From an uncultured virus (IMG/VR IMGVR_UViG_3300027708_000061) (taxonomy: Duplodnaviria; Heunggongvirae; Uroviricota; Caudoviricetes), in IMG/VR virus record IMGVR_UViG_3300027708_000061: 64,000 nucleotides of DNA; one strand, given 5' to 3'. Position numbers and translations under genes: made by a program. The number at the start of each line of letters is the position of its first letter. Position 1 is the stretch's first letter. Below, piece by piece: positions 16,184 to 52,239 of the stretch. A model generated the notes under the pieces. It did no database searches. It saw only the letters and a list, made by a program, of their open reading frames with translations, and was not told the DNA's origin.

Positions 16184-16205
16184 AGTTCTCCTTATTTTGT
16201 ACTTG

Positions 16206-16276
16206 CTGATTCTCTAGGAGTCGAACCTAGGCTAACGGTGTTGGAGACCGCTGTGCTGCCGTAACACTTAGAATCA
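16206..16276 (-). tRNA. trnW: tRNA-Trp (CCA)
   Basis: Acceptor TGATTCT/AGAATCA, anticodon arm GCGGT-CTCCAAC-ACCGT, T arm CTAGG-TTCGACT-CCTAG; 3' CCA not encoded. Confidence 0.92.
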
Positions 16277-25888: not shown

Positions 25889-25924
25889 ATTATGACGGGT
25901 GTGTGTCTGTCTCTCTGGCTAAAC
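25889..25924 (-). promoter_or_regulatory. putative late promoter GTTTAG-N24-CATAAT (leaderless)
   Basis: Same geometry; heads the leftward array. Confidence 0.7.
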
Positions 25925-26794
25925 TGACACTTTTTGCTGTGGAGGCTGTGGAGCAGGGGCGACCTATAGACATCCTGCCCTGTCTACGGGGCATCATCTC
26001 GCCCCCATGCCCCCCTATAGGGGCAGGGTGAGTCAAGGGTAGGCGTGATTATGGAGGCAGGGGCGACTTTAGGCTACTGTGTCACCTTTGTAGACGTGAT
26101 TCGGGTGTGTCACCTGGCGGTTCCGACCCGCAGCCTCGTCTAACCTGCCCCCCTCCGCAGACCTCCATAGCCACCTGCCCCCCTGACTCCCAGTGAGGTG
26201 GCACCACCTGCCTGACCCCAGCAAATACAAGGGGTTCAGGGGTGGTCAGGTGACCGAGTGATGGCGTGGCTGATGGCTCCATAGGCTCTTTTGGCTACTG
26301 TGGCAGTTGACAGGTGGCTCGTGGCTGTACCGCCAGCCATACAGCACCCCTCCCCTCTTGCTATCAGGTCATAACAGCCTCATGGTGACCATGACCCCCC
26401 TGACTGGGTATCCACCTCATACTTACCTGACATGCCCTCCATCAGCACCACAGCCCCGTATGGGGCTATGCCAGCCATCACCCACCAGTGCACCATCCAG
26501 CAAGGCACCCATCAGCAAAACTTCCTCTCTGACTGCATGTGACTACCCTCTCTCTGTGTCTCTCTCTAGGTCTGTCATCCATCTGACCCTCTGTGTGACC
26601 TCACAGGGGGCTCTGCCCCCCGAACCCCCCGATGGTCGGTCGGCAGGGTGCAGGGGCTTCCTAGGGGCTCCTAGGGCTCCTCCTGACCCATCGGCTGGCT
26701 CGGTCACTGGGTGCCGTTACTGGGTCACTGGACGGCTCAGGTGGGGTGCCTGACGCTGGCTCCTCTACCCTCTCCAGAGGGGCTCCAGAGGCTC

Positions 26795-26840
26795 CAAAAA
26801 CACCCTCAAAAACACCCTCAAAAACGCTCAAAAAACACCT
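26795..26840 (+). repeat. tandem A-tract repeats (CAAAAACACCCT x2 plus two variants)
   Basis: Four A5-6 tracts at 10-12 bp spacing. Confidence 0.8.
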
Positions 26841-26931
26841 CTACGGAGCACTTAGACACGCCCATCGGCAACTTTCCATCGCCTCTACAACCCTTATGTT
26901 TACTGGGCTCTAGGAATGTCTCTAAATGGTG

Positions 26932-26961
26932 TTGACACCATGTGGAGATGTGTGCTACTTT
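26932..26961 (+). promoter_or_regulatory. sigmaA-type promoter of the rightward block
   Basis: TTGACA-18-TACTTT with TGn extension. Confidence 0.75.
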
Positions 26962-26967
26962 TGTCTT

Positions 26968-27333
26968 GTTCCGCCTCGGGTATCCAGCCCTCACCTCACC
27001 CCCTCGGGGGTGCCCCCCTCGGGGGCTCGCAGGTGGGGGGTCTGCCTCGACTGGTGACCACTCGGTCACCCACCAGCCCAGTGCTCCTCTGCTGACTGCG
27101 GTGGCGGTTCAGGTGCCCATGCCACCAGATGCATGGGAGAACTCAATAGTGGACGAAACGGATAGCAGGGAGTGCAGGCACGAGGTGGGAGTAGACCCCT
27201 CAAGTAATCGCCTGACCACTTACGAGTGCAGACCTGACTATCCCCAATGGCTTTAGCCCTGTGTGCTGGCGTGCATTCATGCACTGCACTGACCCTCGTG
27301 GTCATGGCGTTCGACTCGCCAACAGGGCACGCA
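26968..27333 (+). ncRNA. candidate large structured RNA/leader ending in a tRNA-like domain
   Basis: Several hand-identified helices; 3' domain GCCCTGT/ACAGGGC plus TGGCG-TTCGACT-CGCCA. Confidence 0.65.
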
Positions 27334-28044: not shown

Positions 28045-28054
28045 TCACCCAATA

Positions 28055-28076
28055 GAGGGGGGCACTTGCCCCCCTC
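28055..28076 (+). repeat. intergenic hairpin copy 1
   Basis: GAGGGGGGC-ACTT-GCCCCCCTC. Confidence 0.85.
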
Positions 28077-28133
28077 ACCCCCCTGCACCACCGACCACCC
28101 AACCACCAACCACCAACCCTAGGAGCCTCAATC

Positions 28134-29612: not shown

Positions 29613-31802
29613 ATGAGCATAAACATTCAACTCACCGAGCACCTAGTGCACAGTGACCGCACCCAAGACCGCCACGCTCGTGCCTCACAGGTTGCCGAGA
29701 AGTATGCGGTCATCATGGCTGAACGAGCCATCAGGGCTCGTGTCATCCCAGCAGGTACCAATGAGGCACCAGCATGGAGCACCAGCAACACCATCACATT
29801 CAACTCTGACCACCTAGGTGACCTGACCACACCAATGCAGGTCGCATCATTCAAGGGCTTGCAGGTGCACGAGTTGTGTCACATCCTGTTCACCCCTCGC
29901 AATGGCTCTGCCATCGTGCGATGGGTCAGGGACAACAACCTGTACAAGTACTTCAACATGCTGGAAGACCAGCGTATAGAGACCCTGTGGACTGCACTGT
30001 ACCCGAGCACCACACCTTGGCTCAAAGCCACCATCTACCAGCACTTGCTGGCAGAGGGCTCTGACTGGTCACTCCAGTATGCACTGGTCGGTGGTCGCAA
30101 GTTCATCAACCCTCGCATCCGCAGAACCTTGCGAGACAAGTTCAAGAGACAAGACCTCGTGGCTGAACTAAAATCAGTCATCGACAGTTACCGCACCTTG
30201 ACATTCACCAGTCCTATGGATGTGGAGACTGCCAAGCCCCTAATCAAGCGTTACGCTGAAATCCTTATGGAGGTAGGCGTGACTCCTGAACCACCAACTG
30301 GTGGCGAGGGTGGCAAGGGTGAGGGCGAGACTCCGCAGGAGGGTGGATGCCAGATTGGCAACCCGACTCCATGCGGTGGCAAGGGTGAGTACGAGCCAAC
30401 ACCTACTGGCAGACCTTTGAAGAAGTCAGAACAGGACAAGGCAAAGGACAAGGCACAGAACACCCCAGTCACTGACGAGGACGATGTGGAGCCTCTGGAG
30501 GATGACAAGGATGACTCTGACCTGACCGATGATGACTTCGACTTCGGTGACCCATCAGACGATGACTTCGAGGAGTCCGAGGATGGCGAGGGCTCTGGCT
30601 CTGACGAGGATGACGAGGATGACTCGGACGATGATGGAGGCTCTAACGGAGGCTCTGGAGATGACGAGGATGACTCCGAGGACGATGACTCCGAGGACGA
30701 TGACTCTGAAACCGAGGGTGAGACCGAGCGTGGGAGTGAACCTCAACCAAAGGGCAAAGGCACCGAGGGTGGCGAGGGCGAGGGCACCGATGGTGAGGGT
30801 GAGGGTGAGGATGAAGACTCTGACTCTGACTCTGACGATGATGGCAACCCAACTGAACCTGACAAGGTCGGTGGCAACAGTGCTGGTGCTGGTCAGGAGA
30901 ATGCTCCGCAGTCTCCACCAGTGTCTGCCCAAGACCTCCTAAAGGATGCTCTGGACAATCTTCTGGACATCTATGGAGACCAGTTGGCTGATGACATCGC
31001 ACGCATCTCTGGTGAGTTGCAGTTGGTCGGCAATCGTGCCGAGGCTCCTCGTGACTCAAAGTGGACAACAGGCTCCACCACTGCGGATGCTCGCAAGGGT
31101 GCCTACGAGTTCGGTAGAGCCCTTGAACAACTCAAAGTGCAGTACGACCCAAACTGGGAGACCGAGGTCGAGGCTGGTCGATTGAACATCGACAGGTTCA
31201 TGCAGGAAGATGTGGACTTGTCAGAGGCGTTCGACCGCTGGGACATGGGTCGTGAGGATGCAGTCGACATCGAATGTGTAATCTTGCTCGACAAGTCAGG
31301 CTCTATGGGCTCTGAAATCGGCATGGCTTACCAGTCAATGTGGGGCATCAAGTCTGCACTGGACAAGGTGGATGCATCCTGTTCAGTTGTGACCTTTGGT
31401 AGCAATGCCGAGGTGCTGTACCACGCCAGTGACAAGGCAACCAACGACCTCCGCAATGGAGGTTGTGGAGGTGGCACTGACCCACTGCATGCTTTGAAGT
31501 ATGCACAGGATGTGCTTGCCAACTCCGCTCGTGCAGTCAAACTGGCAATCTTCATCACCGATGGTGAGTGGGACAAGTCAGACAAGTGTGACGAGGTTGT
31601 CAAGACACTTCGTGAGGGTGGCGTGCTGACTGCACTGGCTTACATCCCAACCAGCAGTTGGGAGGCTGACCGCATCGCCAAGGGTCAGGCAATCAACGCC
31701 CATCAAGCCGAGGCTACCGCAGTGATTACCAGTGCCGACCAGTTGTTCGGTCTGGGTCGCACGCTGGTCGATGTTGCAATCGCCAAGAACCTCGTCAAGT
31801 AA
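29613..31802 (+). CDS. CobT-like HExxH + acidic linker + VWA protein
   Basis: HELCH, NMLEDQRIE, D/E/G/S linker, MIDAS DKSGS...GGT...ITDG. Confidence 0.88.
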   Translation: MSINIQLTEHLVHSDRTQDRHARASQVAEKYAVIMAERAIRARVIPAGTNEAPAWSTSNTITFNSDHLGDLTTPMQVASFKGLQVHELCHILFTPRNGSAIVRWVRDNNLYKYFNMLEDQRIETLWTALYPSTTPWLKATIYQHLLAEGSDWSLQYALVGGRKFINPRIRRTLRDKFKRQDLVAELKSVIDSYRTLTFTSPMDVETAKPLIKRYAEILMEVGVTPEPPTGGEGGKGEGETPQEGGCQIGNPTPCGGKGEYEPTPTGRPLKKSEQDKAKDKAQNTPVTDEDDVEPLEDDKDDSDLTDDDFDFGDPSDDDFEESEDGEGSGSDEDDEDDSDDDGGSNGGSGDDEDDSEDDDSEDDDSETEGETERGSEPQPKGKGTEGGEGEGTDGEGEGEDEDSDSDSDDDGNPTEPDKVGGNSAGAGQENAPQSPPVSAQDLLKDALDNLLDIYGDQLADDIARISGELQLVGNRAEAPRDSKWTTGSTTADARKGAYEFGRALEQLKVQYDPNWETEVEAGRLNIDRFMQEDVDLSEAFDRWDMGREDAVDIECVILLDKSGSMGSEIGMAYQSMWGIKSALDKVDASCSVVTFGSNAEVLYHASDKATNDLRNGGCGGGTDPLHALKYAQDVLANSARAVKLAIFITDGEWDKSDKCDEVVKTLREGGVLTALAYIPTSSWEADRIAKGQAINAHQAEATAVITSADQLFGLGRTLVDVAIAKNLVK

Positions 31803-31809
31803 CACCTAT

Positions 31810-31835
31810 GGAGGGGGGCTATGGAGCCCCCCTCC
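31810..31835 (+). repeat. intergenic hairpin copy 3
   Basis: GGAGGGGGGCT-ATGG-AGCCCCCCTCC. Confidence 0.85.
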
Positions 31836-31891
31836 TCAAAAACCAAACACCCAAACACCCATCAAACACCCAACACAATCAAGGAGCAATC

Positions 31892-32560: not shown

Positions 32561-32570
32561 GACACCCATA

Positions 32571-32592
32571 GAGGGGGGCACACGCCCCCCTC
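32571..32592 (+). repeat. intergenic hairpin copy 4
   Basis: GAGGGGGGC-ACAC-GCCCCCCTC. Confidence 0.85.
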
Positions 32593-32622
32593 ACCCCCCA
32601 ACCAAACAACTAGGAGCAAATC

Positions 32623-32796
32623 ATGGCTAAAAACCTATTCAACTGCACCAACGACCACTGTGCGACCGCACCTTACCTGTGCCAGATGTACGCCCACTCC
32701 AGCAAGTGGTACTACTTCTGGTGGTGGCGTGGCGTGGACAAACTGTTCTGGAAACTACACGAGGCTTACTGCCCTGACATGAAACTGGAGAACTAA
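32623..32796 (+). CDS. 57-aa Cys/Trp-rich protein (not in ORF track)
   Basis: AGGAG RBS; MAKNLFNCTNDHC...; TAATG coupling. Confidence 0.7.
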   Translation: MAKNLFNCTNDHCATAPYLCQMYAHSSKWYYFWWWRGVDKLFWKLHEAYCPDMKLEN

Positions 32797-33257
32797 TGCC
32801 CAACATCATCTGCCCTAATCATGAGGGCTCGTTCGACTGCACACCATTCTGCCCTCTATGTGAGGGCAATCAAGAATACACACCTACAACTGATGGAGAA
32901 CTAATGGAGACTAATCCAACACCTGTGGAGGTCATCGACCCCTGCACCTACTGTGGTCACAGCACAGCGTTCGGCTATGGCAGGTTCGTAAACCGCTTGC
33001 CAGTTGATGATGGCTGGGGATGTGCGGAGTGCTCTGGGTTCAACTGTGACGAGTGCGACAAGCAAATCTATCTGGACTGCGAAGTTCGTGATGCAGAGGG
33101 ATGGAACTACCACCCATCGTGCTTACCGCTAGACCAGCATGTCGGCTATGACCCTGATGACCCTGATGACGAGGGTTGCGGATGCGACCTTTGCGACTTA
33201 CAGCAACAAGCAACCAATGAAACAACAACTAACGGAGGAGAAACAAATGGCAACTAA
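32796..33257 (+). CDS. Cys-rich multi-Zn-finger protein
   Basis: Many CxxC; in-frame internal RBS/ATG at 32904. Confidence 0.7.
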   Translation: MPNIICPNHEGSFDCTPFCPLCEGNQEYTPTTDGELMETNPTPVEVIDPCTYCGHSTAFGYGRFVNRLPVDDGWGCAECSGFNCDECDKQIYLDCEVRDAEGWNYHPSCLPLDQHVGYDPDDPDDEGCGCDLCDLQQQATNETTTNGGETNGN

Positions 33258-33582
33258 GACAGTATGGAGAGTCTATGTGAACTATGGAGAGGGCTATGGA
33301 TGGGTACCAGTCTCATGGGTTGGAACATTCGATACCAAAGCAGAGGCTAACGACTGGATAAATGGAGACCACGACTGGGAGTCACCAGTGGAGGCTATGG
33401 AGGAGACTGTGGAGGTCGATGAAGAAGAAGACGACCCTTCGTCTTCAGCATTCACGCTTACAGTTACACCGCATCAAGCCGAAGTGTTGATGGGCTTACT
33501 TGCTCACAGCATCGAGGATGACAACAAGTATTACCAAGTGCTACAACCAATCTACGAACAACTAACCGAGGAGTATAACTAA
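33247..33582 (+). CDS. acidic hypothetical protein
   Basis: GGAGGAG RBS before MATKTVW. Confidence 0.7.
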   Translation: MATKTVWRVYVNYGEGYGWVPVSWVGTFDTKAEANDWINGDHDWESPVEAMEETVEVDEEEDDPSSSAFTLTVTPHQAEVLMGLLAHSIEDDNKYYQVLQPIYEQLTEEYN

Positions 33583-33827
33583 TGCCAAAGTACACATTCA
33601 GACAATACGAAACAACCACACACATCGTTCAGTTCGAGGCGGACTCTCTGGAGCACGCTAAGGAACTTATGGATGAAGTGTTCGATGTGGATGACCTACC
33701 AGAGTCCGAGAAGTTCTGGAAGAACGGAGAGACTGACTGGGAAGAGCCAAGAGAAGTAGTTGGCAATGGAGTCCTAGACCTATCAGCCATCGGCAACACT
33801 CACGAAGATGACGAGGAGGAGAACTAA
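33582..33827 (+). CDS. small acidic protein, MPKY family
   Basis: MPKYTF...VQFEADSLEHA. Confidence 0.75.
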   Translation: MPKYTFRQYETTTHIVQFEADSLEHAKELMDEVFDVDDLPESEKFWKNGETDWEEPREVVGNGVLDLSAIGNTHEDDEEEN

Positions 33828-34072
33828 TGAGCACAATCAAAGACCTAATCGCTGACCTATCCAAGCAAGACCCTGATGCTCCAGTGCTAGTTGCATACTG
33901 GACACCAGACATCTTTGACCTGACCAACGAACAGTTCGCAAAGTTCATTCAGGAGAATGACCCCGATGGTGATGGAAACAACATCCTAAATCTGGACTAC
34001 GCCAATGAGGAACTGGCTGACTGGGTGACCGAATGGAAAACCGAACAAGGAATAGAGGACAGCAATGAGTAA
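33827..34072 (+). CDS. hypothetical protein
   Basis: MSTIKDLIADLSKQDPDAPV; coupled. Confidence 0.75.
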   Translation: MSTIKDLIADLSKQDPDAPVLVAYWTPDIFDLTNEQFAKFIQENDPDGDGNNILNLDYANEELADWVTEWKTEQGIEDSNE

Positions 34073-34286
34073 GCAATACCACTATGTAGTCGTGTACAAC
34101 TCAAAGACCCGAAACTGGGGTGTCGAGTACGACATGACTGACATGCTCAACGACCGAGAGCAAAGTGTCTATGACCCTGAAACTGAAAAGTGGTCAGGTG
34201 CCAGAGAAGACGAACAGCACGAAGACCTTGGCACCAATCTGGGTGTCATTCTTATCCAAGCAAACGCCAAACGAGGAGGCAACTAA
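34065..34286 (+). CDS. hypothetical protein
   Basis: 73 aa with RBS. Confidence 0.7.
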   Translation: MSKQYHYVVVYNSKTRNWGVEYDMTDMLNDREQSVYDPETEKWSGAREDEQHEDLGTNLGVILIQANAKRGGN

Positions 34287-34513
34287 TGAAGTACTTTGCA
34301 ATGAAAATCACCCTAGCAATGGTGCTGGCACTCAACGCAGTGCCACTACTATCCCTAGCCAAGAGGTATTACTTCGAGTACGAGGTGTACGACAGTTCCA
34401 CGCTTGACCACTATGTCAACGCAATCATCGTGGCAAGCATCTACATCACATCAGCAGTCGCAGTTATCATCTGGGCATTCGCAACAGCAACCCGAGACTG
34501 GGAGGACAACTAA
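34286..34513 (+). CDS. small two-TM membrane protein
   Basis: Two hydrophobic segments; coupled. Confidence 0.7.
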   Translation: MKYFAMKITLAMVLALNAVPLLSLAKRYYFEYEVYDSSTLDHYVNAIIVASIYITSAVAVIIWAFATATRDWEDN

Positions 34514-34698
34514 TGGCTAAGTACAAAATCAAGTGGAAACAAACCACCGAGCATTCAATGGTGGTCGAGGCTAAATCAGCAGAGGAGGCACGAGGTATTT
34601 ATGAGGACATCTATTATGACCCTAATGACTACCAAGACCCTGACGATGCTGGTGACCCACCCATCTACTATCACTCAATCGAAATAGAGGAGAACTAA
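34513..34698 (+). CDS. small acidic protein, MPKY family
   Basis: MAKYKI...VVEAKSAEEA. Confidence 0.75.
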   Translation: MAKYKIKWKQTTEHSMVVEAKSAEEARGIYEDIYYDPNDYQDPDDAGDPPIYYHSIEIEEN

Positions 34699-34859
34699 TG
34701 CCTAAATACGAAATCAACATAGAGTGGAACCAGCATGCAGAAGTCATCAACCCAGCAGACCTAGCACAGGAGATTGCTTGGGCTATCCAGCAACGCTTTG
34801 ATGACGATGGCGATGATGTCGCAAGCGTTAGCGTTCAACTAGAAGAAGAGGTGAACTAA
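34698..34859 (+). CDS. 53-aa acidic protein (not in ORF track)
   Basis: MPKYEINIEW...; TAATG at both ends. Confidence 0.7.
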   Translation: MPKYEINIEWNQHAEVINPADLAQEIAWAIQQRFDDDGDDVASVSVQLEEEVN

Positions 34860-35023
34860 TGCCTGAATACACAGTCAAGATGCTAGTCACTTACACAGTG
34901 ATAGCGGACTCGGAAACCGAGGCTCGTGAGGCGGTTGCATCAAACGAATACCCATTCTTCCCTCACAACGAGGGTTGGTACGAGTCAGAAGAAATCACAT
35001 CAGTAACCCTAAAGGAGAACTAA
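34859..35023 (+). CDS. 54-aa protein, MPKY family (not in ORF track)
   Basis: MPEYTV...TVIADSETEA; TAATG at both ends. Confidence 0.75.
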   Translation: MPEYTVKMLVTYTVIADSETEAREAVASNEYPFFPHNEGWYESEEITSVTLKEN

Positions 35024-35295
35024 TGCCTAAGTATGAATACATCATCACTGAAACAACCCACGCTAACGGACAAATCGTTGTGGAGGATGTGGAGGAGGCT
35101 ATGGAGATTGCTCGACTAAGAATAGTGAAATCCGTAAACGAGGCTGGTGGTGTGGTCTTCGATAAGAAGAGTTACGCCATCCAACTGGTCGCAGTCTGCC
35201 CTGTGTGTGAACAAGGTATGGATAGTGACGAGGCAATCATGTGGACGATGTGCTGGTCATGTCGCAACGAGTTCCAAGAGGAGGAACATGAGTAA
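35023..35295 (+). CDS. MPKY-family protein with C-terminal Zn finger
   Basis: MPKYEY...VVEDVEEA; CPVC...CWSC. Confidence 0.75.
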   Translation: MPKYEYIITETTHANGQIVVEDVEEAMEIARLRIVKSVNEAGGVVFDKKSYAIQLVAVCPVCEQGMDSDEAIMWTMCWSCRNEFQEEEHE

Positions 35296-35578
35296 CAAAC
35301 GCAAACAGGTCGTACTGACCTACAACAACAAAACCAATCTCTACAATGCAGAGGTGCAAGAGGTGAACCTGACTGACCTATCAAGGGAGAGTCTGGGCAT
35401 CTACGAGTTCACCAGCGAGGTAGAACGAGCAGAAATGGCTAAGATAGGACACCCAGTTGAGGGCGTGACTCTCATGGGGTCTGTCTATCTGTCAGTGCTA
35501 CTCGATACAATCAAAACCCATCCAGACAGATTGGTACTGATTGGCTTTGCATCGTGGTTAGAACAGTTCGCAGAATAG
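35288..35578 (+). CDS. hypothetical protein
   Basis: GAGGAGG RBS before MSNKRKQ. Confidence 0.7.
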   Translation: MSNKRKQVVLTYNNKTNLYNAEVQEVNLTDLSRESLGIYEFTSEVERAEMAKIGHPVEGVTLMGSVYLSVLLDTIKTHPDRLVLIGFASWLEQFAE

Positions 35579-35580
35579 GT

Positions 35581-35633
35581 CTGCGAGGGCATGGATGGTC
35601 GCAGGTGAGGTTCAACTCCTCACCCATGCACGC
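35581..35633 (+). ncRNA. tRNA-like minihelix / possible pseudoknot
   Basis: GCATGG/CCATGC plus GTGAGG-TTCAACT-CCTCAC; CTGCGA/TCGCAG; intergenic. Confidence 0.65.
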
Positions 35634-35672
35634 TGTAACATCAGCATCAAACAAACGCCTAGGAGGCACACA

Positions 35673-36035
35673 GTGAGTAATCACGAACTAATCACATGGG
35701 TCGAAAGTCAAGTAGAAACCTTTGCAGAAGACATGGCAGAGACCCACGAAAATAACATGGAACTGGACTACGCCTTTGCAGAGGGAGCACACACTGCATA
35801 CGAAATCGTGCTAAAGAAGTTACTAACCCAGTTGGTCAGCACCAAGTACACGCTCCACAAGGAGAAGTTCTGGGTTGCTGATGATGGTTCTTATGGAGAG
35901 GGCGACATTCTTGTCACTGACAGGAAAGGTTGGTCAAACTCACAAAACAACGCTCTGGAGCACATCACTGACTCTGGAGAACCAACTATTGAAGATGTTA
36001 TGGACATCATCGACATCACTAAGGAGGTGAACTAA
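35673..36035 (+). CDS. acidic hypothetical protein
   Basis: AGGAGG RBS before GTG 35673. Confidence 0.75.
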   Translation: MSNHELITWVESQVETFAEDMAETHENNMELDYAFAEGAHTAYEIVLKKLLTQLVSTKYTLHKEKFWVADDGSYGEGDILVTDRKGWSNSQNNALEHITDSGEPTIEDVMDIIDITKEVN

Positions 36036-36214
36036 TGGAGAAGTACACTGTACCAATCAACTTCTGGGGCACCATCAACGCTAGTGACCCAGCCAAAGCG
36101 TGGGAGAAAATCCACAAGGCTATCGGCAAGGCTTGCGAGGCATTCGAGGCTGAACTGGAGGCTATCGGTCTTACTGATGTAGACCACCTGCATGAAGAAC
36201 TAGAGGCAGAGTAG
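36035..36214 (+). CDS. 59-aa protein, MPKY-like (not in ORF track)
   Basis: MEKYTV...TINASDPAKA. Confidence 0.7.
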   Translation: MEKYTVPINFWGTINASDPAKAWEKIHKAIGKACEAFEAELEAIGLTDVDHLHEELEAE

Positions 36215-36219
36215 TGGGT

Positions 36220-36354
36220 ATGGAGCAGGCGGAGCCCCGATACATCTCGGGGTTCTGCCGAACCAAAACTCACGATAAGTGTAAGCACACAATCACTTGG
36301 TACGACAAGTCATGGACTTGTCTGTGCGAGTGCCATCAAATAGAGGAGAACTAA
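36220..36354 (+). CDS. 44-aa Cys/His-rich protein (not in ORF track)
   Basis: GFC...HDKC...CLCECH; ends in TAATG. Confidence 0.65.
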   Translation: MEQAEPRYISGFCRTKTHDKCKHTITWYDKSWTCLCECHQIEEN

Positions 36355-36533
36355 TGACAAGCAATAAAGTGCTGAAACAATGGATAAAGAACGCCATTTA
36401 TCTTTACAACAATGGCTCAACCAACGCTGAATACCTACGAGGTCAAGTAGAACTTGCTGTGTATTTACTTGGTGGCACAAGTGATGACGAAGAGTTTATG
36501 GCTGAAATAAAGAGTTGGGCAGGTAATAACTAA
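36354..36533 (+). CDS. hypothetical protein
   Basis: 59 aa, coupled. Confidence 0.7.
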   Translation: MTSNKVLKQWIKNAIYLYNNGSTNAEYLRGQVELAVYLLGGTSDDEEFMAEIKSWAGNN

Positions 36534-42713: not shown

Positions 42714-44186
42714 CTAGTTTTCCAGTGAGTTACGGATAATCTTTGTGGTTTCTTCTTCATTTAGAGGCTGGTTCATCTCTCGTAAAGCCTGTGCTCTATC
42801 ACCAAAGATTGCACTCAAAACACCACCACTAGATTGCCTCTCCGCAGTGATGCGAATGAACTCTTTGTTTTCATCAAGTTCCTTCATAGACTTTACAAGT
42901 TTGAATAGGCGGTCTACTTCTTGAGACACATTTGGGTCTGCATAGCCACCATTCATTTCCTCTGCAAACCGCATGAATGCTACTCTCTGACCCTGCATCT
43001 CGATGATTGTAGTGAGCAAAGACTTGAGTTGGTCTTTAGTCTTTACCTCCACAGGCAAGTTGAAAGCACAGGTATTATCGGGCTTGAAAGCAGGGCAGTT
43101 CGCTGCGACAAAGCAGGTGTTGCAGTTGCGTAAAGAGGCACTTTGAGAATGCACAACAGGCACATCTTTGAGCACATCATGACCATTTTCAGTCTCCACA
43201 ATGGTCTTCATTTGGTAGCCAAAAACAGGCAATGGAGAGATGTCTTTAGGGTCTCTTTGGACAAGTTCTGTATGTTCTTGTTTGAGAGTCTCAGAACCAC
43301 TGTTATTAGAAGCACCTACCCCTGTTTGCATCAAACCTGTGTATAGGGGGTCGTCATTACTATCGGCTAACTGGGACATGTGATTGCCTTTCTTCATGCT
43401 GGCTTCGAGTTGTAAGTAAGACCAGACTGCCACTTTGGTTGCTTCTAAAGTGTCGTCATCCACAAACTTCTGAAAGTCAAAGCCTTCTTTTTCTAACAAA
43501 GCCTTGTAGCGTGGACGAGCCTGTGCCTTCATGTTTTTTGGATAACGAACAAGTTTCTGACCATCCCAAATGATGGTCTCACCACGCCTCATAGGGCTTA
43601 TCCAAGACAGTGTGGAGGTTGTGGAGAAAGGTATTTGACGAAGGTTGTCTGGCTTTGCCGTTGCAAGAGCATGGAAGTCTACATTGAGACGGCTCTTCAA
43701 GCCTCGAACAATGCCTGATAGCGAGGTCATAGACTCAATAGTCTCGTAAGGGATTGCAATGTTTGGGAACTCCGTAGCCCAGTTTTGAAGTTTAGGGGTT
43801 CCGTATTTTTCTCTCCATACAACCCATCGCTTAGGGTCCGCCCCTTGGGTGTAGCGTTGTTGTTCTACCCATTCAAGCCCTAAGACTTGACTGTCAAACT
43901 CAACCCAGCCTGAAATACGCTCATAGTTGTAGGAGATAAACTCTTCATAATCCGCTGCGTATTCAAGCAGTTCTTCTTTAGACAAGTTGGCTTCGTCCGC
44001 AGAAGAGGCTCCAGAGTCTATCCATACCTTCATGTTTGGATAGAAATGTTCGCCTACTAGATAAGCCTTAGTCTTAGGAAGTCCCCGCTTACGGAGCCCC
44101 CAGTAGTTGAGCATTACATGCTGAACTCCACACTTCTCCAGAAGAATTCTATTGGAGGGAATCTCCACACCATTGAAAATAATCAT
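42714..44186 (-). CDS. TGT-like barrel protein fused to Cys-rich C-terminal domain
   Basis: WIDSGA, FHAL, STLSW motifs; CxxCxxxxxC. Confidence 0.5.
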   Translation of the reverse strand: MIIFNGVEIPSNRILLEKCGVQHVMLNYWGLRKRGLPKTKAYLVGEHFYPNMKVWIDSGASSADEANLSKEELLEYAADYEEFISYNYERISGWVEFDSQVLGLEWVEQQRYTQGADPKRWVVWREKYGTPKLQNWATEFPNIAIPYETIESMTSLSGIVRGLKSRLNVDFHALATAKPDNLRQIPFSTTSTLSWISPMRRGETIIWDGQKLVRYPKNMKAQARPRYKALLEKEGFDFQKFVDDDTLEATKVAVWSYLQLEASMKKGNHMSQLADSNDDPLYTGLMQTGVGASNNSGSETLKQEHTELVQRDPKDISPLPVFGYQMKTIVETENGHDVLKDVPVVHSQSASLRNCNTCFVAANCPAFKPDNTCAFNLPVEVKTKDQLKSLLTTIIEMQGQRVAFMRFAEEMNGGYADPNVSQEVDRLFKLVKSMKELDENKEFIRITAERQSSGGVLSAIFGDRAQALREMNQPLNEEETTKIIRNSLEN

Positions 44187-49902: not shown

Positions 49903-50507
49903 TAGGCTTGGCTTCCTAATTGGTCTTTTCTGTTGTCTTTTCCAATTAATTCTGCTGCTGCGTAGCCAAAATCATTGTCGTTAATTGTTGGGGCTCGCAG
50001 TCCGCCTTGGAAGGCAGGACTATAAAACTTTTGACCAGTTTGTTTTGCAGAAATTGCAGGGTGTGCGACATTTCGGTCAGCGGCTAAAAAGGCAACGTCA
50101 GGTCTTCCACTGACTTTAAATTTCCAGTTAGCAGGCTTGTACTCATCGGCAAATGGTTGATAGGCAACAGCCTTCATTCCTCCACGAGCATAGCCTTCAG
50201 TTAAAAAACCATCAAATGCTGAGGCGTGAGAGGCTCCGCCCATTAAAATACCATGTTCTGCGGCGTGTCTTGCTACATCTTCGTATGGAGCAGACGGGTG
50301 CTTAAATACTGAGTGTAGTTCTCCTTCTGGAGATACAGCGTATCCAGCCAATCCGTCTCTAGTCAAAAACATTTTAGAGGAGATTAAATCTTGTAATGGT
50401 TTTAGGTCTACAGAGGCACCGTGCTTTTGGGCTTTTTTAGCAGTACGAATCTTGTCTAAGAAAATAGACGCTTCTGATGGTGCTAGTTCTTCAAAATGGG
50501 GTTGCAT
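49902..50507 (-). CDS. GNAT-like domain of the kind seen in phage polyvalent proteins
   Basis: DGLAGYAV...SVFKHP...AFDGFL...RPDVAF; recalled pattern. Confidence 0.55.
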   Translation of the reverse strand: MQPHFEELAPSEASIFLDKIRTAKKAQKHGASVDLKPLQDLISSKMFLTRDGLAGYAVSPEGELHSVFKHPSAPYEDVARHAAEHGILMGGASHASAFDGFLTEGYARGGMKAVAYQPFADEYKPANWKFKVSGRPDVAFLAADRNVAHPAISAKQTGQKFYSPAFQGGLRAPTINDNDFGYAAAELIGKDNRKDQLGSQA

Positions 50508-50891: not shown

Positions 50892-51425
50892 TTATCTCCA
50901 CACTGGCTTCAAGTAATTCAAGGCGTTGGCACGTTGGGCGTTAATAACAGTTGGACCATTAGCCACAGTGTTTGCCTTACCGTCATTTACTAGGTGTGGA
51001 GCAGGTACGAGGTTGAGGTCTTGACCCATTCTCGGGGTTTTCCAGACTACAACTCCGTTGTCCAGTACTTGCTTTGCTTTCATTTGACGCTTAATGCCCA
51101 TGTCTGCGTTAAAACTTGGTGACCAGTAGTACATAGATGGCTCAATACGCTCACCCTTATGGACACCACGCTGGTAAGACTTTTGCCCTAGGCGACTCTT
51201 AATGGAGTCAAGTAAGCGGTCATCACGACGGCTGCGGATGGTACCTAAGTAGCCATCAGGGTATTCTGCTTGTGGAACACGTCCAGTACCGATACGCATA
51301 GCGTCCAGTTCACCACGTGCAACAGGACCACCAAAACCACCTTGGTTGTTGTAACCACTGAAGCCGTTACCGCCAAGAGATTGCCAGTTTTGCTGGGCAC
51401 TATAGTTATTTACTCCACCTGCCAT
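50892..51425 (-). CDS. hypothetical protein
   Basis: 177 aa. Confidence 0.75.
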   Translation of the reverse strand: MAGGVNNYSAQQNWQSLGGNGFSGYNNQGGFGGPVARGELDAMRIGTGRVPQAEYPDGYLGTIRSRRDDRLLDSIKSRLGQKSYQRGVHKGERIEPSMYYWSPSFNADMGIKRQMKAKQVLDNGVVVWKTPRMGQDLNLVPAPHLVNDGKANTVANGPTVINAQRANALNYLKPVWR

Positions 51426-51426
51426 G

Positions 51427-52239
51427 CTAGTTCAACCATTTCGCTTCTGGATGTGGAGCCCCTGGAAGACCAAACGACCTAGCGTGCTCCATAGTGGCTA
51501 GGAATTGCTGACCTACGTTAGCAGGCAATCCAATAGATGACTGTGCTGTAAGTGTTGTTGGCAAAATTAACTGGTTTGGAGTAGGCAAAAACTTTAAAGT
51601 AGACGGCAAAACAATAGTCTTGCCCTTTACATAAGAACCTGGTGGCTGTCCACCAAAGTTGTTGGTGCTATTTTGCCCACGAGTACCTGCAGCCATGGCT
51701 CCACGAGCCAAAGGAGTAAACATGCCAAAGTGGCTACGGAAAGCAGCCTCTTCTCCAGCAGGATTGAAATTACGACCAGAACCAGCGTGACCAAATACGT
51801 CATGAACGGCACGGAACATGTCGTTTTCATCATCAGTAAAGAAAGGATGTGAACCAGTGCTTTTAGTGGCGAGGCTCTTGATTCTGCCTTCGGAAACATC
51901 GTTAAACATGGCACGAGCAGATGGGTATGGGTCTTCTGCGGTAATAGTATGAAATAGACCTAACCCACCTTTAGCAACTGGTTTAGTCATAAAATCGTAT
52001 TGACGACCAATTTCATCACGCATGGCTCTGTAATGTGGCAGTGCCGCTGGGTCAAAGTCAGGTGCTGCTAGATAGTCTCTAGCGATACCCTGTGCTTGTG
52101 GCAAATCCACTGCTATGTTATTGAAAGACGCTGGGCGTGGAGCAAGACCCATTTGTTGAGTGTAGTCAGCGGCTCCTCTGGCTATTGCTGGAACAGCAGC
52201 CTGAATTCCTACGTTAAACTCTGCGGCACCTCTAGGCAT
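51427..52239 (-). CDS. HDxxGH-motif protein (metalloenzyme-like)
   Basis: NDMFRAVHDVFGH...GEEAA...TRGQNS. Confidence 0.6.
   Translation of the reverse strand: MPRGAAEFNVGIQAAVPAIARGAADYTQQMGLAPRPASFNNIAVDLPQAQGIARDYLAAPDFDPAALPHYRAMRDEIGRQYDFMTKPVAKGGLGLFHTITAEDPYPSARAMFNDVSEGRIKSLATKSTGSHPFFTDDENDMFRAVHDVFGHAGSGRNFNPAGEEAAFRSHFGMFTPLARGAMAAGTRGQNSTNNFGGQPPGSYVKGKTIVLPSTLKFLPTPNQLILPTTLTAQSSIGLPANVGQQFLATMEHARSFGLPGAPHPEAKWLN

Follow-up and report, generated by a model that had tools for sequence, protein, structure and literature searches.

Between two small genes in the DNA of an uncultured virus of the Caudoviricetes lies an RNA fold of 41 bases that reproduces no more of a tRNA than its top half. 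The window analyzed here comprises 64,000 nucleotides (IMG/VR record IMGVR_UViG_3300027708_000061), and the element, which begins at position 35589, is real and part of a widespread, strongly covarying family. As judged from sequence comparison, this family is genuine, conserved and not represented in Rfam, and from its features we infer a function: the element probably tells host enzymes that trim tRNAs where a message ends or is cut. More specifically, we regard it as fairly likely that the element acts in cis as a mimic of the top half of a host pre-tRNA lacking CCA, such that the tRNA-maturation enzymes of the host would set the ends of phage mRNAs. The element and its surroundings comprise the following features:

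27256..27331, plus strand: longer tRNA-like element of 7+5 bp with two extra arms and an A-C-G tail, located before the first gene of the plus strand block
35288..35578, plus strand: upstream small open reading frame of 96 amino acids, belonging to no family, the stop codon of which ends 10 nt before the element
35581..35586, plus strand: upstream strand of a previously suggested pseudoknot, present here and not a feature of the family
just before 35589, plus strand: predicted RNase P cut site
35589..35593, plus strand: 5' strand of the acceptor-like stem, 5 bp, starting with G; five of five pairs covary
35594..35603, plus strand: stemless D-like loop of 10 nt with GG at 35597-35598
35604..35624, plus strand: T arm with a 7-bp stem (35604-10/35618-24) and a canonical T-loop (35611-35617), showing covariation among homologs
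35625..35629, plus strand: 3' strand of the acceptor-like stem, showing covariation among homologs
35630..35632, plus strand: discriminator A73, C74 and G75, in the pattern of host tRNA genes without CCA
35632..35645, plus strand: weak 4-bp hairpin directly after C74, kept in close relatives and not enriched family-wide
35661..35666, plus strand: Shine-Dalgarno-like sequence of the downstream gene, seen directly
35673..36035, plus strand: downstream small open reading frame of 120 amino acids, belonging to no family, with a GTG start here and ATG in the relative L002
39021-40133: tyrosine integrase gene, 3.4 kb downstream of the element

All segments quoted in a preliminary description of this DNA are present where it had placed them. 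The division of the stack into 6+6 bp that it had proposed has to be revised: C35624 pairs with G35604 and not with G35594, resulting in 5 bp, a 10-nt loop and 7 bp. Both candidate partners are G in 34 of 45 viral homologs; the nine informative homologs all pair on the T-stem side and break the 6+6 register, and two fit neither arrangement. RNAalifold returned the same 5+7 fold from a homolog alignment selected for pairing. Comparison of the homologs shows a 5-bp acceptor on a 7-bp T arm, a stemless loop with GG, and R73-C74, on the sense strand after a stop codon. The GG at 35597-35598 is predicted to dock on the T-loop and thereby to form a tRNA elbow. As a geometric guess, the 7-bp T stem may let GG reach the T-loop, given the three nucleotides between the acceptor strand and GG. 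The predicted mature 3' end of the element lies after C35631.

Within the window, six hairpins carry a T-loop on a stem of at least 4 bp, and an acceptor strand is present in three of them, namely the tRNA-Trp gene and the elements at 27256 and 35589. A strict descriptor (T-loop plus continuous 12-bp stack) matched three sites of the window, whereas 200 sequences shuffled by dinucleotides contained 0.04 such sites on average. In folding energy, 35581-35633 does not stand out (z -1.10, with 26 of 200 shuffles folding as well) and the case for the element therefore rests on its homologs. It is not a tRNA gene, as its register is 5+7 instead of 7+5 and an anticodon arm is missing. ARAGORN and Rfam called tRNA-Trp alone in the window and no tmRNA, and Rfam scans of the window and of the homologs yielded no fitting family. 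The tRNA-Trp(CCA) gene, the single one of its kind in the window (16205-16276, minus strand), ends in C74, and CCA is not encoded. The longer element at 27256 folds into a four-way junction without unpaired linkers, built from a 7-bp acceptor, a 5-bp T arm and two extra arms. None of 200 shuffles was as stable (z -2.78). It matched the model of the short family weakly (17.6 bits, E 0.015), and a pattern search for its own homologs found none.

A BLAST search with 81 nt against 50,697 phage records returned 15 records, with the best matches falling on intergenic sites of Gordonia and Mycobacterium phages that carry no annotation. With a pattern specifying only the 10-nt loop and the T-loop, at least 118 stretches were found in IMG/VR and 119 in GTDB; the viral (IMG/VR) counts, just as those of the search with unspecified loop reported below, are lower bounds. 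The viral set comprises 54 unique matches with 7-nt spacing, and the inner T stem is paired in 45. In these homologs, chosen by the inner T stem alone, all five acceptor pairs are present in 42 of 45 cases, compared with 282 of 2000 when strands were swapped between viral homologs and none of the nine viral matches without a paired inner T stem. In GTDB, the T stem is formed in 86 of 95 unique matches and all five acceptor pairs in 83 of the 86. When the loop was left unspecified, at least 117 loci (four of which overlap real tRNA calls) with 110 unique matches and 58 continuous stacks were obtained. GG is present in 56 of these 58 loops, at the fourth position in 35 of them; when the loops were shuffled 1000 times, the count averaged 39.9 and never exceeded 49. 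Note that the T-stem-only viral set, the GTDB set and the search without specified loop constitute the unbiased tests; counts of covariation over all pairs and the RNAalifold result used an alignment chosen for pairing and lean towards structure. Stack length is 12 bp in 38 of 54 homologs, 13 bp in 13 and 11 bp in three. The third acceptor pair is A-U in the window element and C-G in 27 of 45 viral homologs. The idea of a tRNA mimic, already put forward in the preliminary description, is supported by covariation, loop GG, T-loop consensus, a stack of 11-13 bp and host-type R73-C74 ends.

The conservation in relatives that had been anticipated for a functional element was found, in that a descriptor search uncovered this homolog family. 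In L002, the element is identical at 45 of 45 positions, while the flanking genes match at 239 of 290 (82%) and 126 of 188 (67%) positions. The relatives L449 and L451 differ from the element only by an A-to-G exchange in the T-loop and the change of one A-U to a G-U pair. A family-model search of 151 genomes (39 candidates scored each) gave two matches, the centre genome and the unpublished G125. The nearest virus record, G001, ends short of the element, and protein-based searches recovered near-identical relatives only. The sequencing runs that contain the stretch are mostly freshwater metagenomes; at least half of the words occurred in 4 of 24 runs, two of which are perhaps the source, and related strains were detected in three DNA runs. 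RNA run X23 contributed three contigs of 151-174 nt at a depth of 2-3, none of them over either window element.

Relatives also bear on a second structure suggested in the preliminary description, a pseudoknot between CTGCGA and TCGCAG. The 6-bp complement is indeed present here but conserved in none of the 45 homologs. At least six complementary upstream nucleotides occur in 0/45 homologs versus 3.6% of random control windows, and five in 2/45 versus 15% of controls with five or more. The sixth pair is broken in L002, where the first base of the strand is changed, and would need G35604, which is part of the T stem, such that the two structures compete. The complement is retained in L449 and L451 (93-97% identical), but these relatives are too close for this to be informative.

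The family extends over actinophages, Bacteroidota-type phages and actinomycete mobile DNA. GTDB record names (80 of 119 titles listed) are mostly Streptomyces, Nonomuraea and Streptosporangium, with some Microbacteriaceae, Bacteroidales and Hymenobacter. In the 17 GTDB loci examined, NUDIX, GGDEF, WhiB, DUF2637 and Mu Gam are among the neighboring genes, and we take the GTDB loci for integrative elements of actinomycetes and Mu-like prophages. Of the three calls by ARAGORN in them, one is unassigned and covers an element. One to five copies are found among NUDIX, GGDEF, WhiB, DUF2637, RapZ-C and Pycsar-effector-like genes in the Streptomyces and Nonomuraea loci L133, L141, L145, L166, L171 and L175, which suggests integrative conjugative elements. 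The right 23.7 kb of Giles and the last 3 kb of Bxb1 yielded no element. Arrays occur in Indlulamithi (seven copies in 5 kb), Konstantine (five clear copies in 5 kb), Cafasso (nine in 12 kb) and Trine (three in tandem). Array copies follow the strand of the neighboring genes and differ in stem sequence within one genome; a few poor intragenic sites also matched by the array descriptor were set aside. Annotated starts overlap elements in Trine gene 40 (L249 3272-4075), Lucyedi gene 95 (L460 173 onward) and Indlulamithi gene 53 (L246 4844 onward). These starts were therefore probably called too early, and the fold can aid annotation in such cases.

The ACGC tail, which had been pointed out as common to the two elements, does follow both of them, but the family keeps only R73-C74. 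In GTDB, the position after the stem is a purine in 83 of 86 cases and the following one C in 84, with another C next in 15. C74 is present in 43 of 45 viral homologs and followed by C in one. Host tRNA genes have C74 in 30/30 and C75 in 12 cases for Streptomyces (30 loci of 68 matches), and C74 in 31/31 and C75 in seven for Hymenobacter (30 loci of 44). Since host tRNA genes share the C74 pattern, ACGC appears to be one spelling of a host pre-tRNA end. In a rival explanation, the element is a feature of the DNA, either the 3' end of a host tRNA left behind as part of an attP site, as considered in the preliminary description, or a repeat serving as recombination seam between gene cassettes. 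The tyrosine integrase gene downstream is in line with it, as are homologs in mosaic mobile DNA and a gene content around the element that varies between related strains. However, the 26-nt 3' half matches (up to three mismatches) in none of 401 Actinomycetota genomes, a sample outside of which the true host may lie, and none of the 3' halves retrieved from host tRNAs agrees with it at more than 15-16 of 26 positions. An att core has no need for the covariation of the acceptor 5' strand with the 3' strand, and neither the different stems among the copies of one genome in multi-copy arrays nor an orientation that follows the genes fits such an origin. We consider a role at the DNA level highly improbable, and attP can, within the genomes compared, be regarded as largely refuted; a side role as a seam for recombination is conceivable.

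Copies of the element reside on the sense strand, typically 5-15 nt past a stop codon. An upstream stop is found within 15 nt in 46 of 84 homologs, compared with 108 of 1680 random positions (6%), and 16 of the 84 have no upstream open reading frame within 200 nt. In the window, the downstream start follows 43 nt past the discriminator of the element, and searches of Pfam (with a longer form of the frame) and PHROG gave no match for the upstream open reading frame. A protective hairpin after C74 was considered and is not clearly enriched (12/44 versus 10.3 in shuffled sequences and 62/117 versus 54.2). The fixed spacing to the upstream stop would suit an element that remains uncut and serves as a landing pad where the ribosome or a protein, from host or phage, binds to the mRNA, with antitermination, translational coupling or re-initiation between neighbors as the result, and the ribosomal L1 stalk and T-boxes recognize elbows as well (PMC4919913). 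G+1, stack length and R73-C74 are, however, features of end maturation and superfluous for an uncut pad. An ATG in the loop, tried as a start codon, has no preferred frame to the downstream gene (23/23/16 of 62) and is absent from many variants. All in all, a landing pad is very unlikely.

The gene content of the window includes head and packaging genes, DNA polymerase A, RecA, WhiB, a VWA/AAA pair and the tyrosine integrase; because of the WhiB gene, the host of the phage is presumably actinobacterial. The element sits in a plus strand block of mostly small genes (27.2-40.1 kb) in a window that otherwise runs on the minus strand. That this block is transcribed early, as previously assumed, is plausible from gene content here and from the position of homologs in cultured phages. 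Many small genes at 32787-36376 (plus strand) are joined by a near-identical junction of ribosome-binding site and overlapping stop/start, and strain differences often break at these junctions. Three related G/C-run hairpins without U tracts (28049-28083, 31805-31839 and 32565-32599, plus strand) lie between larger plus strand genes and are read by us as a second kind of intergenic signal. Where the strands diverge, the stretch 25900-27250 is G+C-rich and gene-poor, contains inverted repeats and a 12-nt tandem repeat (26792-26829) and may hold a promoter, origin or genome end. A gene on the minus strand (42714-44186) resembles those for queuine tRNA-ribosyltransferase (phrog_887, E 2e-59), which in phages often modify DNA.

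RNase P, RNase Z and CCA-adding enzymes read the tRNA elbow and the distance from it (PMC4919913). The element keeps each feature that maturation enzymes need and drops the anticodon, and it would be matured like a host tRNA that lacks CCA. CCA is missing from 53 of 65 tRNA genes in S. coelicolor, where most of the tRNAs encoding it are cut between the two Cs (PMC4681348), and from 32 of 45 in M. tuberculosis (PMC10673834). The YrlA RNA of M. smegmatis is cut by RNase P and then gains CA (PMC4201824). For the element, the RNA would be cut or trimmed after C74 (C35631) by RNase Z or 3' exonucleases, and CA would possibly be added after C74. The upstream message would gain a nuclease-resistant, tRNA-like 3' end and the downstream message would be freed. 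RNase P would perhaps also cut before G35589 and release a mini-tRNA of ~43-45 nt. In a long operon of small genes, the ends and levels of mRNAs would thereby be set individually for each gene. That the 3' end is defined in this way while the element mostly stays attached is possible; that the element is cut on both sides is slightly less probable. Against the mechanism, the 5+7 register differs from that of tRNA, and RNase Z of B. subtilis is blocked by long 5' extensions (PMC1874595), which an element embedded in mRNA would carry. RNase P RNA pairs with both C74 and C75 (PMC1874595).

The only transcript data found concern a longer relative. The mycobacteriophages SWU2, Sheen and L5 repeat the layout of the window, in that the first gene is preceded by a long tRNA-like element while a short one follows deeper in the block, and the element at 27256 occupies the same position as the L5 leader element. 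The long element of L5 (51,226-51,134, C74 at 51,133) is of the 6+5 type and was matched in 78 phage records; its T stem covaries among L5, D29, RedRock, Equemioh13, Lucyedi and Lokk. Pleft of L5 (start 51,672) yields a very abundant, stable RNA of ~500 nt, the end of which is reported at 51,140-51,190, where no terminator is evident; the authors call this 3' end unexplained (PMC5712189). Probe C (51,171-51,230), the interval of which lies inside the long element, detects the ~500-nt RNA, and the downstream probe B gives a weak signal (PMC5712189). A true 3' end near 51,133 is compatible with these data because at the other side of the RNA, too, the reads stop 30-60 nt before the 5' end that was mapped (PMC5712189). 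A deletion of 51,195-51,407, which removes the 5' strand of the long element along with about 180 nt outside of it, was not recoverable, while the neighboring deletion of 51,407-51,619 was obtained (PMC5712189). Stable RNAs such as the Pleft RNA could aid mycobacterial gene expression (PMC5712189). The accessible text of that study gives no description of a tRNA-like fold. The peak that D29 shows upstream of gene 89 was seen again in a preprint of 2025, the accessible text of which does not mention tRNA.

Although of low resolution, the L5 data fit 3'-end definition with the element attached better than clean excision, and since the element stays in the main RNA, efficient cutting by RNase P in L5 is argued against. 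Punctuation of the transcript, as proposed in the preliminary description, is the best-supported of the putative functions. The short element of L5 lies in a segment absent from D29 and is thus dispensable for lytic growth in the laboratory. Two unannotated small open reading frames are present in L5 at genes 89/88 (L125, 50,786-50,382), the second of which ends 8 nt before the short element. In SWU2 (L003 2120-2137) and Sheen (L004 1725-1742), a box resembling the 'stoperator' of the cluster A repressor (consensus taken from PMC5712189) directly precedes the short element. Kampy (L444) has a degenerate candidate leader element with a 6-nt T-loop (~50,353-50,295, minus strand) in the highly transcribed region before gene 88; the 5' pile-up near 50,400 given for this phage (PMC4626039) is too imprecise to be matched to it.

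The drop of RNA beyond the L5 leader element amounts to more than 90% and is read by the authors as termination of about 90% (PMC5712189). An intrinsic terminator or attenuator without U tract, the GC-rich stack of which releases RNA polymerase while the tRNA-like fold only stabilizes the 3' end, would account for this drop, for the location just past stop codons and for the promoter-like hexamers that follow some copies (MakoManhole, Cafasso). Runs of T are, however, rare after C74, with four or more T within 8 nt in one of 44 viral and five of 117 GTDB cases, and a plus strand terminator scan of the window did not list the element as an intrinsic terminator. Termination has no need for GG, the T-loop consensus, a length of 12 bp or C74, and nearly every gene of some operons is preceded by a copy. 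The U-less terminators of phiC31, examined as possible relatives, differ in being plain hairpins without T-loop. We therefore judge a terminator to be quite unlikely. An unannotated tRNA-like structure with D-like and T arms that ends in A-C-T was observed in phiC31 (L253, ~31,430-31,515, plus strand) at genes 13/14.

In a further alternative, the released mini-tRNA is the main product and would work in trans, titrating host factors that bind tRNA or serving them as a decoy, with mRNA cutting as a side effect. Candidate targets would be toxins acting on acceptor ends such as MenT, tRNA nucleases, RNase P and RNase Z, the CCA-adding enzyme and SmpB. Copies arranged in tandem with no intervening genes in MakoManhole and Trine, up to seven copies in 5 kb, a loop that is nearly invariant across host phyla, as expected of a surface read by protein, and the toxicity of the L5 Pleft region to the host (PMC5712189) are consistent with this proposal. 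On the other hand, the close association with stop codons and with the ribosome-binding sites that follow fits a role in cis, most genomes shown have one to three copies, an anticodon arm is absent, and the first three acceptor pairs as well as N73 vary and hence define no single aminoacylation identity. A decoy, whichever of these factors it might bind, is unlikely in our view, and a cis-acting signal for message ends is the explanation that we prefer.

Literature searches yielded no description of the element among the matches listed, which for one search were the top 40 of 826; it may have been mentioned as a 'conserved repeat'. None of the top 40 of 177 matches to a literal motif search of papers dealt with phage RNA. 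We tentatively propose that phages of Actinomycetota and Bacteroidota and integrative elements carry hitherto undescribed 41-nt mimics of the 5+7 type, on which the host 3' tRNA pathway would act to produce CCA-tailed, tRNA-like 3' ends of mRNAs and to divide early operons one gene at a time, the longer L5 member being the 3'-end signal of the Pleft RNA. If this is true, punctuation by tRNA, known from mitochondria and MALAT1, is also common in bacterial viruses and mobile elements, and the element is among the smallest natural tRNA mimics. It would also make it possible to test directly by what means L5 and D29, in the absence of a terminator, form the 3' end of their stable, toxic Pleft RNA (PMC5712189).

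Several known systems resemble the element in part. Early mRNAs of T7-type phages contain RNase III sites, repeated intergenic structures at which a host nuclease divides a long early transcript. The element differs from these sites in fold and enzyme, as it copies a tRNA. C4 antisense RNA of P1/P7 and CI RNA of P4 are cut from longer transcripts by host RNase P. These are single-copy antisense regulators with target-pairing loops, whereas the element is multi-copy, has variable stems and gave no Rfam match. With mascRNA and menRNA (RF01684), it has in common that a small tRNA mimic without true anticodon resides inside a longer transcript. However, mascRNA is a 7+5 cloverleaf in a vertebrate lncRNA and not a 5+7 minihelix between phage genes; homologs of the element scored 19.9-25.4 bits with RF01684, far under the gathering threshold of 42.5, and the window element gave no match. 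The tRNA-like domain of tmRNA shares the acceptor/T stack and a stemless D loop with GG (three host tmRNAs), and two of these three have C74 without full CCA, as does the element. Unlike tmRNA, the element has no G3-U70 alanine identity, no tag reading frame and no pseudoknots, its register is 5+7 and not 7+5, and it occurs in multiple copies. Y RNAs of the YrlA type likewise contain a tRNA-like module and occur in phages, and the RNase P cut and CA gain in M. smegmatis have been described for them (PMC4201824), but they adjoin Ro60/TROVE genes, have a Ro-binding stem and differ in arm order, while the element has no match in Rfam. No TROVE gene was present among the 70 open reading frames scanned in the window, which is part of a genome.

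The presumed mode of action of the element is like that of plant mitochondrial t-elements and mascRNA, but by its features it is neither a tRNA nor a tmRNA, mascRNA, YrlA or C4 RNA. The Pleft RNA of L5 and D29 (PMC5712189) comes close in holding a tRNA-like element in its 3' region, which belongs to the longer 6+5 type and not to the short 5+7 one. The plant mitochondrial t-elements, at which RNase P and RNase Z cut and thereby define the ends of mRNAs, resemble the element in having a tRNA-like fold with a T arm beside coding sequence (PMC1920247). They are degenerate, organelle-specific cloverleaves of ~70 nt (PMC1920247), whereas the phage element is a 41-nt structure of two helices in 5+7 register with a stemless GG loop. 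Only for the longer relative in L5 do the end of an RNA and the end of the element coincide, and there coarsely (PMC5712189). Just as in t-elements, the T arm of the phage element is stacked on an acceptor-like stem next to coding sequence.
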